NCBI GenBank assembly: GCA_024399155.1
Contig: JAKSHX010000001.1
Coordinates: 33,116 to 97,115, forward strand
Origin: an archaeon
Lineage (GTDB): Archaea > Thermoplasmatota > Thermoplasmata > Methanomassiliicoccales > Methanomethylophilaceae
Length of the DNA stretch: 64,000 bases
Direction of reading: 5' to 3'
Shown: one piece after another, positions 16,185 to 58,283 of the stretch
Layout: each line of letters starts with the position of its first letter
Position numbering within the stretch: position 1 is the stretch's first letter
The notes under the pieces: model-generated
Database searches by the model: none
What the model was told of the DNA's origin: nothing
What the model saw: the letters and a program-made list of their open reading frames with translations, nothing else
Made by a program: the position numbers and the translations under genes

Positions 16185-16199
16185 TAATAGCAGCCTATT
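16185..16199 (+). repeat. 15-bp direct repeat TAATAGCAGCCTATT (copy 1)
   Basis: Identical 15-mer at 19795-19809. Both copies lie just downstream of an RBP gene stop codon. Confidence 0.5.
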
Positions 16200-16251: not shown

Positions 16252-16428
16252 TTAATATCCGTTTTTTGCCAAATACTCTTCCAGTGCCTTTTTGATTATC
16301 CATGACTTTGCTCTATCTTCTTCTTCGGAAAACTTGTTGAGCCGTGCATAAATTTCAGGCGGAAGAGATATATTGAATTTTTTAAATGGCTCTCGTTCGG
16401 TATCAGGTCTTCCCTGTGATCCTTTCAT
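16252..16428 (-). CDS. Ribbon-helix-helix (CopG/Arc-like) DNA-binding protein, 58 aa
   Basis: Below the ORF-track cutoff; hand translated as MKGSQGRPDTEREPFKKFNISLPPEIYARLNKFSEEEDRAKSWIIKKALEEYLAKNGY. Has a beta-strand (FNISLP) plus two-helix RHH pattern. RBS AAGGAG. Confidence 0.65.
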   Translation of the reverse strand: MKGSQGRPDTEREPFKKFNISLPPEIYARLNKFSEEEDRAKSWIIKKALEEYLAKNGY

Positions 16429-16556: not shown

Positions 16557-16588
16557 AGTCACAACAAAGGAAATAAGGAGTGACTATT

Positions 16589-17581
16589 ATGTCGAACTGT
16601 AAAGAAACAATACTGATGAAGATGAAAGCTCGATTAATTGATGCTGATTATACACCAGAGCAGATACGGTCTATTACAGATATGTTGATCTTTGAAATGG
16701 CTGACTTCGATGTTGTAGCTCAGACAAGAGAAATAGTTCCATATGATTCTGAAACAGATAATCTGATTAAGCTGTATCAGGCAGTATTATTAACTCAAGG
16801 ACTTGTTCCGGGTACAGTTGCGAACTATACTTTTGCACTTAATAATTTCAGAGCATCATTGAACAAATCGCTAACCGAAGCAACCCCTCTGGATATACGT
16901 ATGTGGTTAGCACAAGATCAAACGAGAGTTTCATTAAGGACTTCTGACGGTCACAGAACAGCACTCTTATGTTTCTACAACTGGCTTGTATCAGAAAAGA
17001 TAATTACGTCAAATCCAATGACTCCTATTAAGCCAATAAAGTACCCAGAGGAAATTAAACTGCCCTTCTCTGACATTGAGGTTGAGTTACTGAGAAACAA
17101 CTGTAAGTCACTGAGAGAAAAAGCTGAAATCGAACTCTTATTAAGCACGGGACTACGTGTGAGCGAAATGTGTAATCTGGATAAGAAAGATATTGATTTC
17201 CACAGTAATAAGATTCACGTACACTTAGGCAAAGGGCGTAAAGACAGAATAATTTATATGAGTAATGTTGCAGCTATGCATCTGAAGAATTACTTAGATT
17301 CAAGAAAAGACACGGCAGAATGTTTGTTTTACACTAAGTTCAGAACAAGACTAACTGATAAAGCGTGTCAAGATGATCTTAAAAAGATCGGTAAAAGAGC
17401 TGGTGTTAGTGATGCTCACCCACACAGATGCCGACATACCTTTGCTACAGTTTCATATGAAAAAGGTATGGATATAAGAACGATACAAGTTCTGATGGGG
17501 CACGCTAATATAAATCAAACAATGAAATACATAACTACAAGTATGACTCATGTAGAAAATGAATGCAAAAGATTTTTGTAA
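16589..17581 (+). CDS. Tyrosine recombinase, XerC/XerD-like
   Basis: Catalytic boxes STGLRVSEMCNL (R), HPHRCRHTFAT (H-x-x-R) and LMGHANINQTMKY (H..Y). N-terminal SAM-like core-binding region. ATG 16589 with AAGGAG. Confidence 0.85.
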   Translation: MSNCKETILMKMKARLIDADYTPEQIRSITDMLIFEMADFDVVAQTREIVPYDSETDNLIKLYQAVLLTQGLVPGTVANYTFALNNFRASLNKSLTEATPLDIRMWLAQDQTRVSLRTSDGHRTALLCFYNWLVSEKIITSNPMTPIKPIKYPEEIKLPFSDIEVELLRNNCKSLREKAEIELLLSTGLRVSEMCNLDKKDIDFHSNKIHVHLGKGRKDRIIYMSNVAAMHLKNYLDSRKDTAECLFYTKFRTRLTDKACQDDLKKIGKRAGVSDAHPHRCRHTFATVSYEKGMDIRTIQVLMGHANINQTMKYITTSMTHVENECKRFL

Positions 17582-17631: not shown

Positions 17632-19791
17632 ATGAGTATAAATAAAAAGAATTCCGATGGCTCTTATAGTCAGTTTGCTGGTATGCCATATGTTACTAAA
17701 GACAATATTGGATTAAGTAAAGTTGAGAATAAGAACTCAGAGGATATCAGAGGTGAAATCACCTCTAAGAATATAAAGGACGCATTAGGATATACACCAG
17801 CTAATGACGTAGACGAAAAGAAATCTCAGAATGATATAGCAGTTCTCTCTTCAAGAATGGATGGGTTTACAAAGCTTGGCGAAGGTAGCACAACTGGAGA
17901 CGCAGAGCTTGAGGATATAAGAGTTGCGTATGATGGTAAGACATATAGTAACGCCGGAACAGCAGTACGTTCTCAAGTTTCAGACCTTAAGGAAACTATG
18001 GACACGATTTCTGATGCGTTATACATCGACAACGTAACAGATGACAAGACTACATACAATAGTGATACAATTGGTAATGTACGACTTTTTCTTGCAACAA
18101 TTGCAAATGCGTGTACAGTTGACTTATCGGTTGGATATAACGCATCGTATGATGATTTTACAATTGTCATTGAGTTATGGCACAAGTCCGGTAGTGATTA
18201 TATTAAGTATGCGGAATACAGAACAACGACAATTAAAGGGGAATCAACTGCCAACATCAAAAAGATTTCCGCTGAAGCAGATACATACATCACTGTTAAG
18301 TCGGAAAATGCGAGTGGCAGCAAGCCATTTAGATATGGATTATATGCTGATGCTCCGAAAATTAGAGTGTCAAATACATTAACGGGAAATGTTATATCAG
18401 ATGCAAGAGACACATCTATATCTGGATATTGCTGTTATAAGACTGTATGCTACAATCTTTTTGATGTTTCAGAAATCAGCGAAGCAGCAAACGCAGCTTT
18501 AACAAAGTCAACAAATCTCGAATCTGAAGTTGATGAAATCAAAGATACGTTATATACAGAAACTGAAGAAGATAAACTGTCATATAACGAAAACTCTGCA
18601 AATAATGCAAGAGCTTTTATTGCAAAAGCGAATGATGGATGTGTGTACTTATCTGTTGGATATAATGCTGTATATGATCCTTATGATCTCGTTGCGGAGC
18701 TCTGGCATAAAAACGGGAATTCTTACACCAAGTATTCCGAAAAATCTGTAAGAACTCAGAAAAGTGACGGGAAAGGTATTGCAGATTTCGAAAAAATTGA
18801 AATTTCTGGCGAAACATACATATCAATTACAGCACGAAACATTACCGGATCAAAACCGCTGCTTTACAGCGAAGATGCCGCTGCGCCATATCTTACTGTA
18901 TCGACATCACTTGACGGAGATACAGTTACAGTTAAGCAGACATCAATACGAGGATACTACAGTTACAAGATCAAAAAGATCGAATCTAAGGCAACTGCAA
19001 AGAAAACTGCATATATCGTCGTTGACATTAACGGCAATGGAGATTATGACAACCTCAACGCAGCCATTAATGATAATGCAGAAGGTAAAGTAATATATCT
19101 GATGCCGGGCACATACGAGGTCGAACCAATCCGAAGCGGTGACAAGGCAATAAGGATTATCGGAACAGACAAGACAGCTTGTAAGATTGTCAACTACGAC
19201 GGTCGTTATAGATATCCTCCAATTGAGGTCAGCGTAGGTTATTTCGAAAACATCACAATTGCTGCGGAATATGTTGAGGGAAAATCTCAGGAAATCGGCA
19301 CTGGTCAGGGCGCATATGCAGTACACGTTGAAGACGAATTTTCGAAAGGAAAAACTCTTGAATTCCATAATTGCGTATTATATTCCGACTTTTCATGTGC
19401 AATCGGAATTGGTTTGAGAAAGGAACAGACAGTAATACTTGATAATGTGACAATGGAAAATGCACAGATTGTCGGCAGAGGTATATATACTGATAACGGA
19501 TCATTAGGTGCGCTGGTATTTCATGACAGCATCGGCGAAGGCGGAAACAGTTACATAACAGTTAAAGATTGTCTGCTGAAATCATCACTTGGAAATTCAA
19601 TTGCACCGAGCTGGACGGGAAATCCTGAAAGCGGCGTAAACAAAGTATATTGTACATTTATCAACAATACTTTATATGACAAGATTCACAGGTATAGCAA
19701 CAACGTGTGGCTAAGGAATAACCCATTTGAAAATGGATTTGAATTTGATGTTGCTTACGGAAACTCAGCTTCAGAGCTTAACGATAATTAA
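17632..19791 (+). CDS. Tailspike / receptor-binding protein 2 with beta-helix (pectate-lyase-like) C-terminal domain
   Basis: Shares the anchor motif ELEDIRVAYDGKTYSNAGTAVRSQVSDLKETM with RBP1. Two internal homologous about 230-aa modules (..VELWHKSGSDYIKY.. / ..AELWHKNGNSYTKY..). C-terminus TAYIVVDINGNGDYDNLNAAINDNAEGKVIYLMPGTYEV is typical of right-handed beta-helix depolymerases. Confidence 0.75.
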   Translation: MSINKKNSDGSYSQFAGMPYVTKDNIGLSKVENKNSEDIRGEITSKNIKDALGYTPANDVDEKKSQNDIAVLSSRMDGFTKLGEGSTTGDAELEDIRVAYDGKTYSNAGTAVRSQVSDLKETMDTISDALYIDNVTDDKTTYNSDTIGNVRLFLATIANACTVDLSVGYNASYDDFTIVIELWHKSGSDYIKYAEYRTTTIKGESTANIKKISAEADTYITVKSENASGSKPFRYGLYADAPKIRVSNTLTGNVISDARDTSISGYCCYKTVCYNLFDVSEISEAANAALTKSTNLESEVDEIKDTLYTETEEDKLSYNENSANNARAFIAKANDGCVYLSVGYNAVYDPYDLVAELWHKNGNSYTKYSEKSVRTQKSDGKGIADFEKIEISGETYISITARNITGSKPLLYSEDAAAPYLTVSTSLDGDTVTVKQTSIRGYYSYKIKKIESKATAKKTAYIVVDINGNGDYDNLNAAINDNAEGKVIYLMPGTYEVEPIRSGDKAIRIIGTDKTACKIVNYDGRYRYPPIEVSVGYFENITIAAEYVEGKSQEIGTGQGAYAVHVEDEFSKGKTLEFHNCVLYSDFSCAIGIGLRKEQTVILDNVTMENAQIVGRGIYTDNGSLGALVFHDSIGEGGNSYITVKDCLLKSSLGNSIAPSWTGNPESGVNKVYCTFINNTLYDKIHRYSNNVWLRNNPFENGFEFDVAYGNSASELNDN

Positions 19792-19794
19792 CAA

Positions 19795-19809
19795 TAATAG
19801 CAGCCTATT
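19795..19809 (+). repeat. 15-bp direct repeat TAATAGCAGCCTATT (copy 2)
   Basis: Starts 4 nt after the RBP2 stop codon and is identical to 16185-16199. Confidence 0.5.
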
Positions 19810-19833
19810 TAGAAGTTATGAACAAATTGTTGC

Positions 19834-19862
19834 TTGACAATTTGCATATATGTTGTTAATAT
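19834..19862 (+). promoter_or_regulatory. Near-consensus sigma70 promoter
   Basis: TTGACA (19834-19839), exact 17-nt spacer, TAATAT (19857-19862). No ORF lies downstream. Confidence 0.65.
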
Positions 19863-20278
19863 TGCACAACGTAAAAACAAATCGTCACCCCGTAAGCGTT
19901 CAGGGTGACTGGCTATGAAACGCATATTTGAATCAAGGCAGATATGCGTGAGCCTTATATGGTTTGCAGATATCCAAGCTTGATGTAGGCTTCGGCTGAA
20001 AGAAAACTGCGGTGATTACTATAACTGACGATTGATGTCGGTTATGGTATCACAAATTATTTGGCTGACGAAGCCACAGATGCGCCCCGGCAGAGTTTAC
20101 TGTGTCAAGGAGAATGTGAAATCTAAATAAACAGACGCTGACGAGTGTCTTGAGATATGCGAGCAAGATTTCCGCACCGCAGTTTGTGCTTGCATTATCA
20201 ACCCAATGTAAGGCTTGGTCTTACTCATTATCACCGCAGTAACGGGTCAAGGTAGCCTTGCGAGGTTGCCAAGATATA

Positions 20279-20320
20279 ACAAAAAAAAGAAGCAGAATCC
20301 TTTTACAGACTCTGCTTCTT
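20279..20320 (-). terminator. Rho-independent terminator for the minus-strand arm
   Basis: AAGAAGCAGA-N14-TCTGCTTCTT. On the minus strand it is followed by U8 (A8 at 20281-20288). Confidence 0.7.
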
Positions 20321-20390
20321 TAACAATAACAAATCATGGAGAATAGCACTCCGTTAATTATTATAACATAATTGTTATATTACGTCAATA

Positions 20391-20429
20391 AGAGACATCA
20401 GATTAATTTCTGGTGTCTCTTTTTTTTTG
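20391..20429 (+). terminator. Rho-independent terminator for plus-strand transcripts
   Basis: AGAGACATCAG-N9-CTGGTGTCTCT (two internal mismatches) followed by T9. Confidence 0.75.
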
Positions 20430-20432
20430 CGT

Positions 20433-20624
20433 TTAATAATGACCGACTTGTCCATAAGATGTGGCATAGATTTTCGCTCCACATACTGGACAAATATCTT
20501 CTTCATCTTTCTTAGGCTTGTCACAGATAAGCACCCTAATAGGACTACATGGGATCAATATACCGCATTCATTTTCTTTTAAATATACATTGCCGTTTGT
20601 TTCGATTCTAAGGTTCTTCAGCAT
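20433..20624 (-). CDS. Small zinc-ribbon-like protein
   Basis: 63 aa with a C-terminal CPVCGAKIY pair plus upstream Cys. Confidence 0.5.
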   Translation of the reverse strand: MLKNLRIETNGNVYLKENECGILIPCSPIRVLICDKPKKDEEDICPVCGAKIYATSYGQVGHY

Positions 20625-20865
20625 AATTGTTACCTCTTATATTTTGACCACGATGGTTAAACTGCGTTAGAGTCCGTCACTTGCATTAAGTGCTACGAAC
20701 GTCATTTCAATAGCTAACAAAAGCCCTATAATAAGTACTGGTGCACTTTCTAAAACTATACCAAATCTTTCTTTTATTTTTTGTCGTTATCACGCATACT
20801 CAGTCTGAATATCTGAATCGAATTCAGAAGAGTAGTGATAGTTAATATTAATAATGTTGTGTCTT

Positions 20866-56894: not shown

Positions 56895-58049
56895 TTATCC
56901 TCTCAGGTCTTCCTTCATCATATCTACGACGTTGACACCGAGTTTATTGTTTATTTTATGTATGATATTATCTATATGATCTTTCTCAACCATACGATAA
57001 TAGTTCCTGTATCCTTCAAGAACCTGAACTTCATTTAATTCCCACGACTTCCCGTTAAGCCTATCCATAGCATAGTTAAACAGCATAACAGCGAATCTCC
57101 GTTTCGCTTTGTACCCAATAGTGATTTCATTATCCTTATTGAGCATAACTCCGAGGTTCCAGTTAGAACCAGACGAAGAACCATACCTTGTCTTCTGACT
57201 CTTGATGTTGAACGGAGCTCCAAAACCATTAAGGCTTTCCTTAATGATTGACTCAATCTCATCCACATCAAAATCGTACTCAGAAGAAACTATAAAGTCA
57301 TCCGCATATCTTGTGTAAATATACTTCTGCTTATTATAATCCTTTAGCTTATTGGACAGTTCGTAGTCCACAGGAATCATAATTAAGTTAGTAATGAGCG
57401 GTGATATCGGTGTGCCCTGAGGAAGACCGCCATCCAGAAAAGCAAGGTTAATTGCGTCAGCTAACGCCTGTTTGCCTTCTTCATCCTTAACAACCTGAGA
57501 AAACGGGAATATCATTGAAAGCATTTTCATTGTATATTCTTCTGTTGTACTTCCGAAGAAGTTGCTCAGGTCATACTTAGCAAACCACTTGCTTTTATTC
57601 TGCTGATGTTTCTTTACCGCATCAAGAGTGCTTCTATTCTTTACATAAGCGAATGCTGCAGTGTGATATAAAGCCCCGAACTGTTCTTCAAATATCCTCT
57701 TAAGTTCCCTTAATGCTTCCATTAATTCTGGATTAGGGGCATCTATACGGCGAAGTCCACCACTTTTCTTTGGAATATGAAACGTATAATAAAGACTGGA
57801 ACGTTCAGCGTTCTTTAAAGCCTCATACTTTTCATTAAATGTCTTGAGCGTCTGGATTAAATGACGCACAGAAATCGCCCTTTTAAAATGCTTTGTAGCT
57901 TCTTCAACACAATACGTTCTTGTTGCTGTTGTGTTAGGAGCAGCTAAACCACCATACTTAGGTTCTTCGAATAATGTATCCAGATTAAGTAAATCATCAA
58001 GACTCATTTGATGATATGACGGACTCAATTTTACAACAATATACTCCAT
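56895..58049 (-). CDS. Reverse transcriptase, retron/DRT-like (stand-alone RT domain)
   Basis: FHIPKKSGGLRRIDAPNPELMEALRELK, YVKNRSTLDAVKKH, YDLSNFFGS, GLPQGTPISPLITNL, YTRYADDFIVSS, IKSQKT...NLGVMLN. ATG at 58049 with AAGGAGG; the track start (TTG 58079) lies inside the a1 arm. Confidence 0.85.
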   Translation of the reverse strand: MEYIVVKLSPSYHQMSLDDLLNLDTLFEEPKYGGLAAPNTTATRTYCVEEATKHFKRAISVRHLIQTLKTFNEKYEALKNAERSSLYYTFHIPKKSGGLRRIDAPNPELMEALRELKRIFEEQFGALYHTAAFAYVKNRSTLDAVKKHQQNKSKWFAKYDLSNFFGSTTEEYTMKMLSMIFPFSQVVKDEEGKQALADAINLAFLDGGLPQGTPISPLITNLIMIPVDYELSNKLKDYNKQKYIYTRYADDFIVSSEYDFDVDEIESIIKESLNGFGAPFNIKSQKTRYGSSSGSNWNLGVMLNKDNEITIGYKAKRRFAVMLFNYAMDRLNGKSWELNEVQVLEGYRNYYRMVEKDHIDNIIHKINNKLGVNVVDMMKEDLRG

Positions 58050-58069
58050 ATGTATCCTCCTTGTTATTG

Positions 58070-58283
58070 TTAATTGCAATCTTTGTATTCTTATACCTGC
58101 CTGACGGCGTTGCCCGCAGCCCTTGAGAACGCGTAAAACCTTACTTTGAAAATATTAAAAGCCTTTGATCGAAGCTCCTGAAATTCAGATCCACTTCCGC
58201 CTCACCCGATCGTGCCTTTATCAAATAGTTACTTCCATCTACGACAGAAGTTTTCTGTTACCAGAAAAATGCATTGCAATTAA
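58070..58283 (-). ncRNA. Retron-type ncRNA unit 1 (msr/msd-like), upstream of the RT
   Basis: a2 UUAAUUGCAAU (58283-58273) pairs perfectly with a1 AUUGCAAUUAA (58080-58070). A G immediately follows a2. Hairpins UUUUCUG-GUAA-CAGAAAA, CUUC-N11-GAAG, GAUCGGG...CUUCGAUC and GUAU-AAGA-AUAC. a1 ends 20 nt before the RT ATG. Confidence 0.65.

Follow-up and report, generated by a model that had tools for sequence, protein, structure and literature searches.

Analysis of a 64-kb stretch of phage DNA (64,000 nucleotides in all, hereafter the window) points to an autonomous gene for a small RNA of the drum family, provided with a leaky terminator and giving in addition a read-through isoform with an accessory structured domain, and we regard this overall reading as likely. 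That the locus belongs to the drum family can be said with high confidence, and it is a new member of this already catalogued family, not a new class of RNA. A preliminary description of the same DNA had depicted a large ornate phage ncRNA; what stands of this is a promoter-driven, structured and non-coding locus, whereas its 5' 105 nt belong to the known drum family, the model of which is 112 nt long.

The window comes from a large phage genome, and its exact sequence is found in the NCBI MAG GCA_024500545.1, which carries the label "archaeon", and in a Logan contig. Genes for a tape-measure protein, tail proteins and a GH25 endolysin occupy the plus strand up to 19791, and those for Pol III alpha, DnaB, DnaG, NrdD and a Pnkp-RNA ligase fusion, together with four tRNAs, occupy the minus strand from 20624 onwards, the ligase fusion adjoining the tRNA cluster of the window. 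Given that this gene content is bacterial, the logic of sigma-70 promoters and intrinsic terminators is applicable to the locus. Between the two convergent arms lie 641 nt (19792-20432) free of ORFs of 60 aa or more on both strands, which is the largest such gap in the entire 64 kb, the second-largest being the tRNA cluster. The structured core is richer in GC (0.444 at 19869-20285) than the whole window (0.363) or the immediate flanks (0.29-0.30), and when compared to shuffled sequences the plus strand of 19869-20429 folds with a z-score of -8.0. The lack of ORFs, the GC-rich core, the near-consensus promoter, all the named helices and the terminators on both strands (Table 1) had been pointed out in the preliminary description and are borne out by our scans and fold predictions, as are the mutually exclusive pairings and the thrice-repeated CUGACGA heptamer that are taken up below. 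Neither tRNA nor tmRNA genes were detected in 19700-20500 by ARAGORN, and the Rfam tRNA model had no match there.

The plus-strand promoter is identical in L122, one of the related sequences described below, and absent from the relatives L134 and L125-127. It would direct transcription from a predicted start near 19869, and the promoter scan found no further promoter-like site on the plus strand between 19870 and 20330. At the other end, the strong plus-strand terminator is the outer limit for any read-through transcript, while the hairpin of the leftward terminator is possibly a weak stop for plus-strand transcripts too; L134 has a different hairpin at this position. The leftward terminator stops transcripts from the right before they reach the structured core, and the plus-strand terminator is over by about 20429, short of the stop codon at 20433, so that the overlap of about 140 nt between convergent transcripts is purely intergenic. 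The suggested antisense control of the 20433 operon is therefore improbable. A minus-strand promoter-like site, which had been overlooked earlier, faces a hairpin at 20354-20336 and the minus-strand terminator, and is not conserved in L134.

Table 1. Sequence and structural features of the drum locus (window coordinates)
Feature	Position	Strand	Basis or score
15-nt site TAATAGCAGCCTATT, left border of the promoter and drum block	19795-19809	.	
Sigma-70-type promoter, TTGACA-17-TAATAT, extended -10 TG	19834-19862	+	promoter scan, 10/12
5' hairpin, 7 bp and one predicted pair within the loop	19884-19909	+	-12.5 kcal/mol
Drum RNA, RF02958	19910-20014	+	53.3 bits (gathering threshold 43)
17-bp hairpin with one bulge (20012-20053), followed by AAAUUAUUUGG	20012-20064	+	-21.1 kcal/mol, z -5.6
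Predicted multi-hairpin 3' domain closed by 11-bp long-range helix 20006-20016/20230-20240	20006-20240	+	z -6.15 (20004-20243)
Predicted hairpins within the 3' domain	20062-20076, 20133-20150, 20154-20199, 20208-20224	+	fold prediction
Second 11-nt segment, CACCGCAGTTT, fully complementary to the drum 3' tail (20004-20014)	20175-20185	+	
Terminal hairpin of the extension, UGCG loop	20246-20275	+	-13.1 kcal/mol
Leftward intrinsic terminator with a minus-strand U8 tail	20286-20321	-	terminator scan
Promoter-like site, TTGACG-17-TATAAT, with TG	20360-20388	-	promoter scan, 11/12
Strong intrinsic terminator, 13-bp stem, U9	20390-20429 (scan: 20390-20421)	+	-19.5 kcal/mol, z -6.6

The identification of the 5' part rests on a match to the full length of RF02958 (model positions 1-112). 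It is the sole non-tRNA Rfam match in the window, and the Rfam search proposed in the preliminary description, while recovering this family, matched none of ROOL, GOLLD, raiA, OLE and introns even at E up to 10. The helices GGCT/ACGCATAT...ATATGCGT/AGCC and the UUCG hairpin are those that the Rfam model of drum contains as P1, P2 and a small hairpin. The k-turn core of the family is recognizable as GGC-UAU-GA on one strand and GA-GCC on the other (19911-19920 and 19949-19954), comprising a C-helix GGC/GCC, the 3-nt bulge UAU and tandem G-A/A-G pairs. However, the consensus 3n G is deleted, which leaves the 3b A unpaired and results in an atypical k-turn. The missing 3n G is probably the cause of the modest score of the window drum, which at 53 bits lies below the 69-94 bits of other phage drums; its relative L122 scores 55.5 bits. 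The conserved unpaired blocks GAGCC, GGUU and GAAAGAAAAC are all present at the aligned positions. Furthermore, the segments following GGUU and GAAAGAAAA are joined by a closing helix, GCAG (19965-19968) with CUGC (20007-20010), and in a comparison set of 20 other distinct phage drums, obtained by a loose pattern scan of IMG/VR, this helix covaries (GCG/CGC, GCGUG/CACGC, GUGUG/CACAC and GGCGG/CCGCC). Weinberg et al. 2017 (PMC5737381) describe the drum motif as having features of a "sophisticated" function, with a Rho-independent terminator directly 3' of the motif and a protein gene nearby. A literature search found no functional study of drum later than that report.

Most other drum loci display a common order, namely a sigma-70 promoter, a short hairpin just before P1, the drum itself and a clear intrinsic terminator 4-16 nt past GAAAGAAAAC, the 5' hairpin having been read by eye in most of these loci (L005, L007, L023, L052, L056, L057, L066, L079 and L103). 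The window matches this order with its promoter, the 5' hairpin, the drum and the 17-bp hairpin, which starts 3-4 nt past the motif. The 5' hairpin directly adjoins the drum P1, and its minus strand also scores as a terminator, a feature that had escaped the preliminary description. The tail of the 17-bp hairpin, AAAUUAUUUGG, is a weak U-tract at which the terminator scan made no call, and the corresponding tail of L134 has two more U. Given this combination of a stable hairpin at the terminator position of drum genes and a poor U-tract, the hairpin is probably a weak, leaky terminator that would give rise to two isoforms. Under this proposal, 19834 to about 20064 would constitute the autonomous drum gene with a short RNA of about 195 nt as its first product, and the second would be a transcript of about 455-560 nt that reads through to 20321 or 20429. 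The added stretch would bear an accessory domain specific to this lineage (20012-20285, five to six hairpins). As two 11-nt segments of this domain are perfectly complementary to the 3' tail of the drum, it might either close as a long-range helix or compete with the drum closing helix and the terminator hairpin. We consider such a short-plus-read-through architecture, the start, both 3' ends and any processing of which are predictions, to be fairly probable.

Six related sequences (including L122, L125, L126, L127 and L134) were obtained from Logan contigs that were reached via the tail-fibre and recombinase proteins. Across them the 5' hairpin and the drum are nearly invariant, the hairpin on its own being unchanged in all six, and their surroundings differ. 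Upstream of these two elements there is the promoter block in the window and L122, the end of a 415-aa gene in L134, and in L125-127 a tyrosine recombinase whose stop codon is 20 nt away. Downstream, L134 matches the window as far as 20291, and L122 and L126 change right after ...AAAACUG to another sequence that is common to both. The presence of two kinds of 3' flank beside near-identical drums indicates, at the level of this sequence comparison, that the 5' hairpin together with the drum is the conserved module and that at least two alternatives exist for the 3' part. The module would thus be swapped as one unit, with neighbours differing on both sides. The homology of the window to L122 and L130 starts at the 15-nt site TAATAGCAGCCTATT, which has a second exact copy as a direct repeat at 16185-16199, and in all relatives this motif is found either after tail-fibre-like genes or ahead of an RHH-recombinase module.

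Searches anchored elsewhere recovered neither part of the locus. The family of the 190-aa protein from the right arm is widespread, and 27 IMG/VR loci coding for it were without drum or extension by regex and blastn (18 of the 27 were also scanned with Rfam), as were by blastn the two closest Logan relatives of the right arm; the homology of right-arm relatives to the window ends at about 20757-20864. Among GenBank phages there was no blastn match to the region, no megablast match to the surrounding 20 kb and no tblastn match to either the 190-aa neighbour or PBECR4, the predicted RNase considered below. IMG/VR was also searched with the tail-fibre and recombinase proteins as anchors, which returned no relatives.

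The extension past the drum, about 270 nt in length (20012-20285), has so far been found in one relative, L134. A joint RNAalifold prediction for the window and L134 comprises 110 pairs, none of them broken, with three double-sided compensatory changes, and in the 20246-20275 hairpin L134 differs from the window by two compensatory changes on both sides of a pair and one change compatible with G-U pairing. The larger indels between the two sequences are whole hairpins, namely a 39-nt gain after 20076 and a 22-nt loss that corresponds to the 20208-20224 hairpin, and L134 additionally has three insertions of 1-2 nt with respect to the window. Circularity was avoided by folding the window alone and then mapping the 26 substitutions of L134 onto the resulting structure. 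Of the pairs changed in this window-only fold, seven remain intact and three, all in 20077-20118, are broken, as against a mean of 8-9 broken pairs when the positions of the substitutions are permuted (P = 0.0045). Changes of the kind C-G to U-G, G-U to G-C and G-C to G-U keep pairing on the plus strand only, and the fold of 20015-20285 is likewise asymmetric (z -2.7 on the plus strand versus -0.15 on the minus strand), which is repeated in L134 (z -4.3 versus -2.3). Taken together, these patterns offer reasonable evidence, drawn from two sequences about 92% identical, for selection acting on the plus-strand RNA structure of the extension.

Beyond L134 the extension has no match in Rfam or beside any other drum locus, and a covariance model of 20112-20283 run across 68 loci recovered the window and L134 only. 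Exact and degenerate DNA pattern searches of IMG/VR, JGI metagenomes and GTDB genomes, employing 22- and 35-mers from the extension, a lineage-specific 21-mer and a pattern of the drum tail with two CTGACGA, yielded nothing or chance coding matches. The heptamer CTGACGA occurs at 20025, 20065 and 20138 and has only 12 copies in the whole window on both strands; the loop motif GACG(A)/CUGACGA is seen three times in the 3' domain.

As an alternative to a short drum RNA with occasional read-through, the locus could specify one obligate large RNA of about 450-560 nt (19869 to 20321/20429), in which the drum would only be the 5' domain and the 3' domain would dock onto the drum tail via the 11-bp long-range helix. 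There is no canonical terminator between drum and extension, as this alternative would have it, but in most drum genes a terminator follows within 16 nt. In L134 both parts are kept as a block, about 410 nt long and flanked on either side by non-homologous sequence; against this, the drums of L122 and L126 are nearly 100% identical and yet continue into the other 3' flank. Similarly, in L056, L076 and L118 the drum is followed by over 400 nt of non-coding sequence, in part visibly common, but none of the other drums has a homologue of the extension beside it. A folded 3' domain is favoured by the long-range helix and by the changes that preserve structure; the long-range helix, however, competes with the covarying closing helix of the drum. 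Weighing these points, we hold an obligate large RNA to be unlikely and retain the reading of an autonomous drum gene with a leaky terminator.

The competition between helices deserves closer attention. The drum tail is complementary at 11 of 11 positions to each of two segments of the extension, 20175-20185 (paired with 20004-20014) and 20230-20240 (paired with 20006-20016), and both these alternative pairings overlap the 5' arm of the 17-bp hairpin. Within the tail, CUGC (20007-20010) is the 3' strand of the covarying closing helix and GGUGAU also forms the foot of the 17-bp hairpin, and the two together are able to pair with either 20230-20240 or 20175-20185. In L134 the 20230 partner is intact and the 20175 partner has one mismatch. 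Additionally, the segment AGAUAUGCG (20153-20161) is a repeat of the P2 3' arm. As drum-tail bases are common to the competing helices, a read-through transcript could refold the drum. One might go further and view the extension as a new cis-controlling domain that switches drum folds, with the drum being the antidote of a PBECR4-type nuclease and orphan copies serving as anti-defence decoys. The two anti-tail segments and the copy of the P2 arm would then toggle the folds, such that the active closed fold would belong to the short terminated isoform and the opened fold to the read-through isoform. The proposal in its entirety appears rather improbable to us.

The boundaries of homology raise yet another alternative, in which the region is a DNA-level element at a recombination hot spot, its hairpins and CTGACGA copies being att-like, regulatory or packaging sites bound by proteins or used in recombination, and the drum match its only RNA part. 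Consistent with this, homology among the relatives switches exactly at 19795-19809, about 20011 and about 20291, the 15-nt site marks cassette borders beside the RHH and tyrosine recombinase module, several Logan contigs terminate within or beside the region, and CTGACGA is clustered in it. The recurrent 15-nt site, however, lies outside the structured core. Moreover, the stems contain many G-U pairs, whose counterparts in the opposite strand or a cruciform would be A-C mismatches, C-G to U-G and G-U to G-C substitutions preserve pairing in the plus-strand RNA alone, and fold z-scores are strand-asymmetric in both phages, all of which renders a DNA element very unlikely when set against an RNA gene. 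Least credible of all is a decayed protein gene (named in the preliminary description as what would overturn its reading), a set of small-protein genes, or a plain 3' UTR or antisense buffer between convergent operons: the setting between convergent arms with overlapping terminators and the presence of ORFs of 30-45 aa would agree with it, but there is no ORF of 60 aa, the ATG ORF at 20157 lacks a Shine-Dalgarno sequence and its frame is altered in L134, gaps of 1, 2 and 22 nt between the window and L134 leave no reading frame preserved, GC and fold stability lie well above those of the flanks, and the transcript overlap touches no coding sequence.

Turning to function, contextual information from other drum loci provides a lead. 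In L052, L066 and L079 a PBECR4 (PF18813) gene lies 56-62 nt past the drum and its terminator on the same strand, so that the order is promoter, drum, intrinsic terminator and predicted RNase gene, with no space for a second promoter. The PBECR4 proteins of L066 and L079 share only 24% identity, suggesting that the linkage between drum and PBECR4 is old. PBECR4 is found in about 3 of the roughly 12 drum lineages examined, IS200, AAA_21 and dUTPase being other neighbours. In a second context drums are found within tRNA arrays alongside ROOL and skipping-rope, and in a third, as in the window, at operon ends beside convergent genes. Type III toxin-antitoxin systems consist of a tandem-repeat RNA (ToxI), a terminator and an endoribonuclease toxin (ToxN). 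The three PBECR4-bearing drum loci have the same gene order, but unlike ToxI the drum is not a tandem-repeat RNA, and no nuclease gene follows the drum of the window, where neither tandem repeats nor a plus-strand gene ahead of the terminators were found. The drum is probably a trans-acting RNA, compact and protein-binding, with a part in phage-host conflict at the RNA level. The PBECR4 operons and the tRNA/ROOL arrays point to conflict of this kind, and the Pnkp-RNA ligase fusion of the window adds to the lead. That the drum might be the partner or antidote of an RNA-targeting nuclease is a tentative guess, rather less likely than not, which we prefer on account of the type III-like layout and the k-turn.

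Weinberg et al. (PMC5737381) report the associated protein gene in either orientation, which makes a strict toxin-antitoxin operon a poor fit. In the loci compared here the recurrent neighbour is PBECR4. In the window a six-frame jackhmmer search detected no PBECR4, and Pfam scans of the neighbouring ORFs detected no DUF3800, so that no associated gene of either type was found. As PBECR4 is lacking, the drum of the window would be an orphan copy, and its partner might be encoded elsewhere, possibly by the host. We also considered the tyrosine recombinase as a partner, since in L125-127 the drum starts 20 nt past the stop codon of this gene. This candidate was set aside, as an integrase is rarely near other drums and, where it is near, the link looks positional, reflecting the end of a late operon.

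Drum is among the few RNA motifs of 2017 with hallmarks of a "sophisticated function" that are still without a known role. The present locus contributes a clean example that runs from promoter to terminator, in a large phage whose host is Gram-positive, along with evidence for movement of the 5' hairpin and the drum as a module, and what may be an unusual extended isoform with built-in alternative pairings. The comparison set further yields a testable lead, in that drums occur in toxin-antitoxin-like PBECR4 operons or in islands with tRNAs, ROOL and skipping-rope. If the PBECR4 lead is true, drum would be counted among the weapons and antidotes made of RNA that phages and hosts use against each other, and if the reading as a cis-switch is true, it would open a first way into the regulation of drum activity.

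Among known systems, ROOL and GOLLD are large ornate RNAs (PMC5737381; PMC12286853), and the preliminary description had advanced their size class as a hypothesis. Reference features used here were a length of about 580 nt for ROOL, usually near tRNAs, and 600-800 nt for GOLLD, near tRNAs. Like these the window locus is phage- or prophage-borne, large, ORF-free and rich in hairpins. Unlike them it is not beside tRNAs, its long part is conserved in one relative only, and there is no evidence of a multimeric cage-type architecture. The hypothesis fails at the level of models too: Rfam gave no match to either family at E up to 10, with ROOL (RF03087) unmatched in 19700-20500 at E up to 10 and across the whole window at E up to 0.05, and the GOLLD covariance model without a match in the window, whereas the same tool gave 315 bits for a true ROOL, that of L056. 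In L056 this ROOL shares a tRNA/ncRNA island with a drum. Retron, intron, tRNA-like and riboswitch readings were also considered and found no support from Rfam or ARAGORN, the sole reverse transcriptase being 37 kb away.

The k-turn of drum has been found to fold in Mg2+ and to bind L7Ae in vitro (Lilley lab, PMC8191799; also PMC12510878). When compared with L7Ae-bound k-turn RNAs, the window drum has the C-helix, the 3-nt bulge and the tandem pairs, but its 3n position is deleted, and its folding and protein binding are putative. With respect to the remaining drums, the window departs in its lower score, the missing 3n G, the weak terminator U-tract, the structured extension of 270 nt after the drum and the lack of a detectable PBECR4/DUF3800-type gene. 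What it has in common with them is the full-length match to the model, the k-turn core, the conserved loops and the covarying closing helix, as well as its own promoter, the 5' hairpin, a hairpin at the position of the terminator and the phage context.

A module comprising the RHH, tyrosine recombinase and tail-fibre genes of the window is bounded on both sides by the 15-nt site TAATAGCAGCCTATT, which recurs, with no more than two mismatches, at the edges of tail-fibre-like genes in all relatives. Among these the interval between the recombinase and the drum RNA differs, holding no gene, one or two fibre genes, or a holin and a lysin. The ends of several contigs fall at or near such borders, and the first base of one Logan contig (L134) is exactly the start of the site. 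This looks like an exchange of phage tail-fibre cassettes through recombinase action. A second recombinase (P0071), 82% identical, is found in the source MAG of the window, GCA_024500545.1, and in Logan contigs the drum RNA immediately follows this recombinase. While this MAG is labelled 'archaeon', the contig itself is a phage that encodes Pol III alpha and DnaB/DnaG of bacterial type as well as an endolysin (GH25 + PG_binding); its presence there is probably a binning artefact. Elements of the IS200/IS605 type were also observed, both in relatives and adjoining another drum locus.

Coordinates of features in the window, its relatives and other drum loci
Feature	Location	Strand	Remark
15-nt site TAATAGCAGCCTATT	window 16185-16199, 19795-19809		two copies bracketing the module
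RHH gene	window about 16252-16428	minus	in module
Tyrosine recombinase gene	window 16580-17581		in module
Tail-fibre gene	window 17632-19791		in module
15-nt site in relatives	L122 7647; L125 5261; L126 299; L128 7038; L129 127; L130 1580 and 5092; L132/L133 829; L134 1
Promoter-like site	window 20388-20360	minus	TTGACG-17-TATAAT, 11/12, with TG; strong
Small hairpin	window 20354-20336	minus	target of promoter-like site
Terminator	window 20321-20286	minus	also lies ahead of promoter-like site
Kinase (AAA_33), phosphatase (Metallophos) and T4-type RNA ligase 1 fusion	window 51539-53806		polynucleotide kinase; 755 aa
Four-tRNA cluster	window 53890-54485		directly adjoins fusion gene
Reverse transcriptase (RVT_1) gene	window 56895-58079		may be of DGR, retron or intron type; 37 kb from drum locus
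TnpB-like ORF	L205 642-1916		IS200/IS605-type; in a relative
Y1 transposase and unannotated 430-aa ORF	L005 3368-5341		IS200/IS605-type; downstream of drum
Non-coding stretch after drum	L056 4092-4522		equivalent regions in L076, L118
Drum RNA gene, then PBECR4 gene	L052 7908-8565; L066 168-898; L079 8401-9180

A putative RNA some 70 nt long could arise from the minus-strand promoter-like site of the window and would be complementary, over its whole length, to any drum transcript that reads through; no conservation of this site was seen in L134. Elsewhere in the window, the kinase-phosphatase-ligase fusion encoded beside the tRNAs is a tRNA-repair kit of the type deployed against anticodon nucleases.

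At three drum loci of other phages (L056, L076 and L118) the drum RNA and the next tRNA lie over 400 nt apart, with no coding sequence in between. Part of this stretch is visibly common to the three, and a scan of it against Rfam in L056 and L118 yielded no match; it may contain another undescribed phage RNA. At three further loci a gene for a PBECR4 (PF18813) nuclease follows the terminator of the drum gene across a gap too short for a promoter, and the nucleases of L066 and L079 share a mutual identity of only 24%. No description of this layout was found in the literature searched; as an arrangement of RNA gene, terminator and nuclease gene, it is similar to that of a type III toxin-antitoxin locus.
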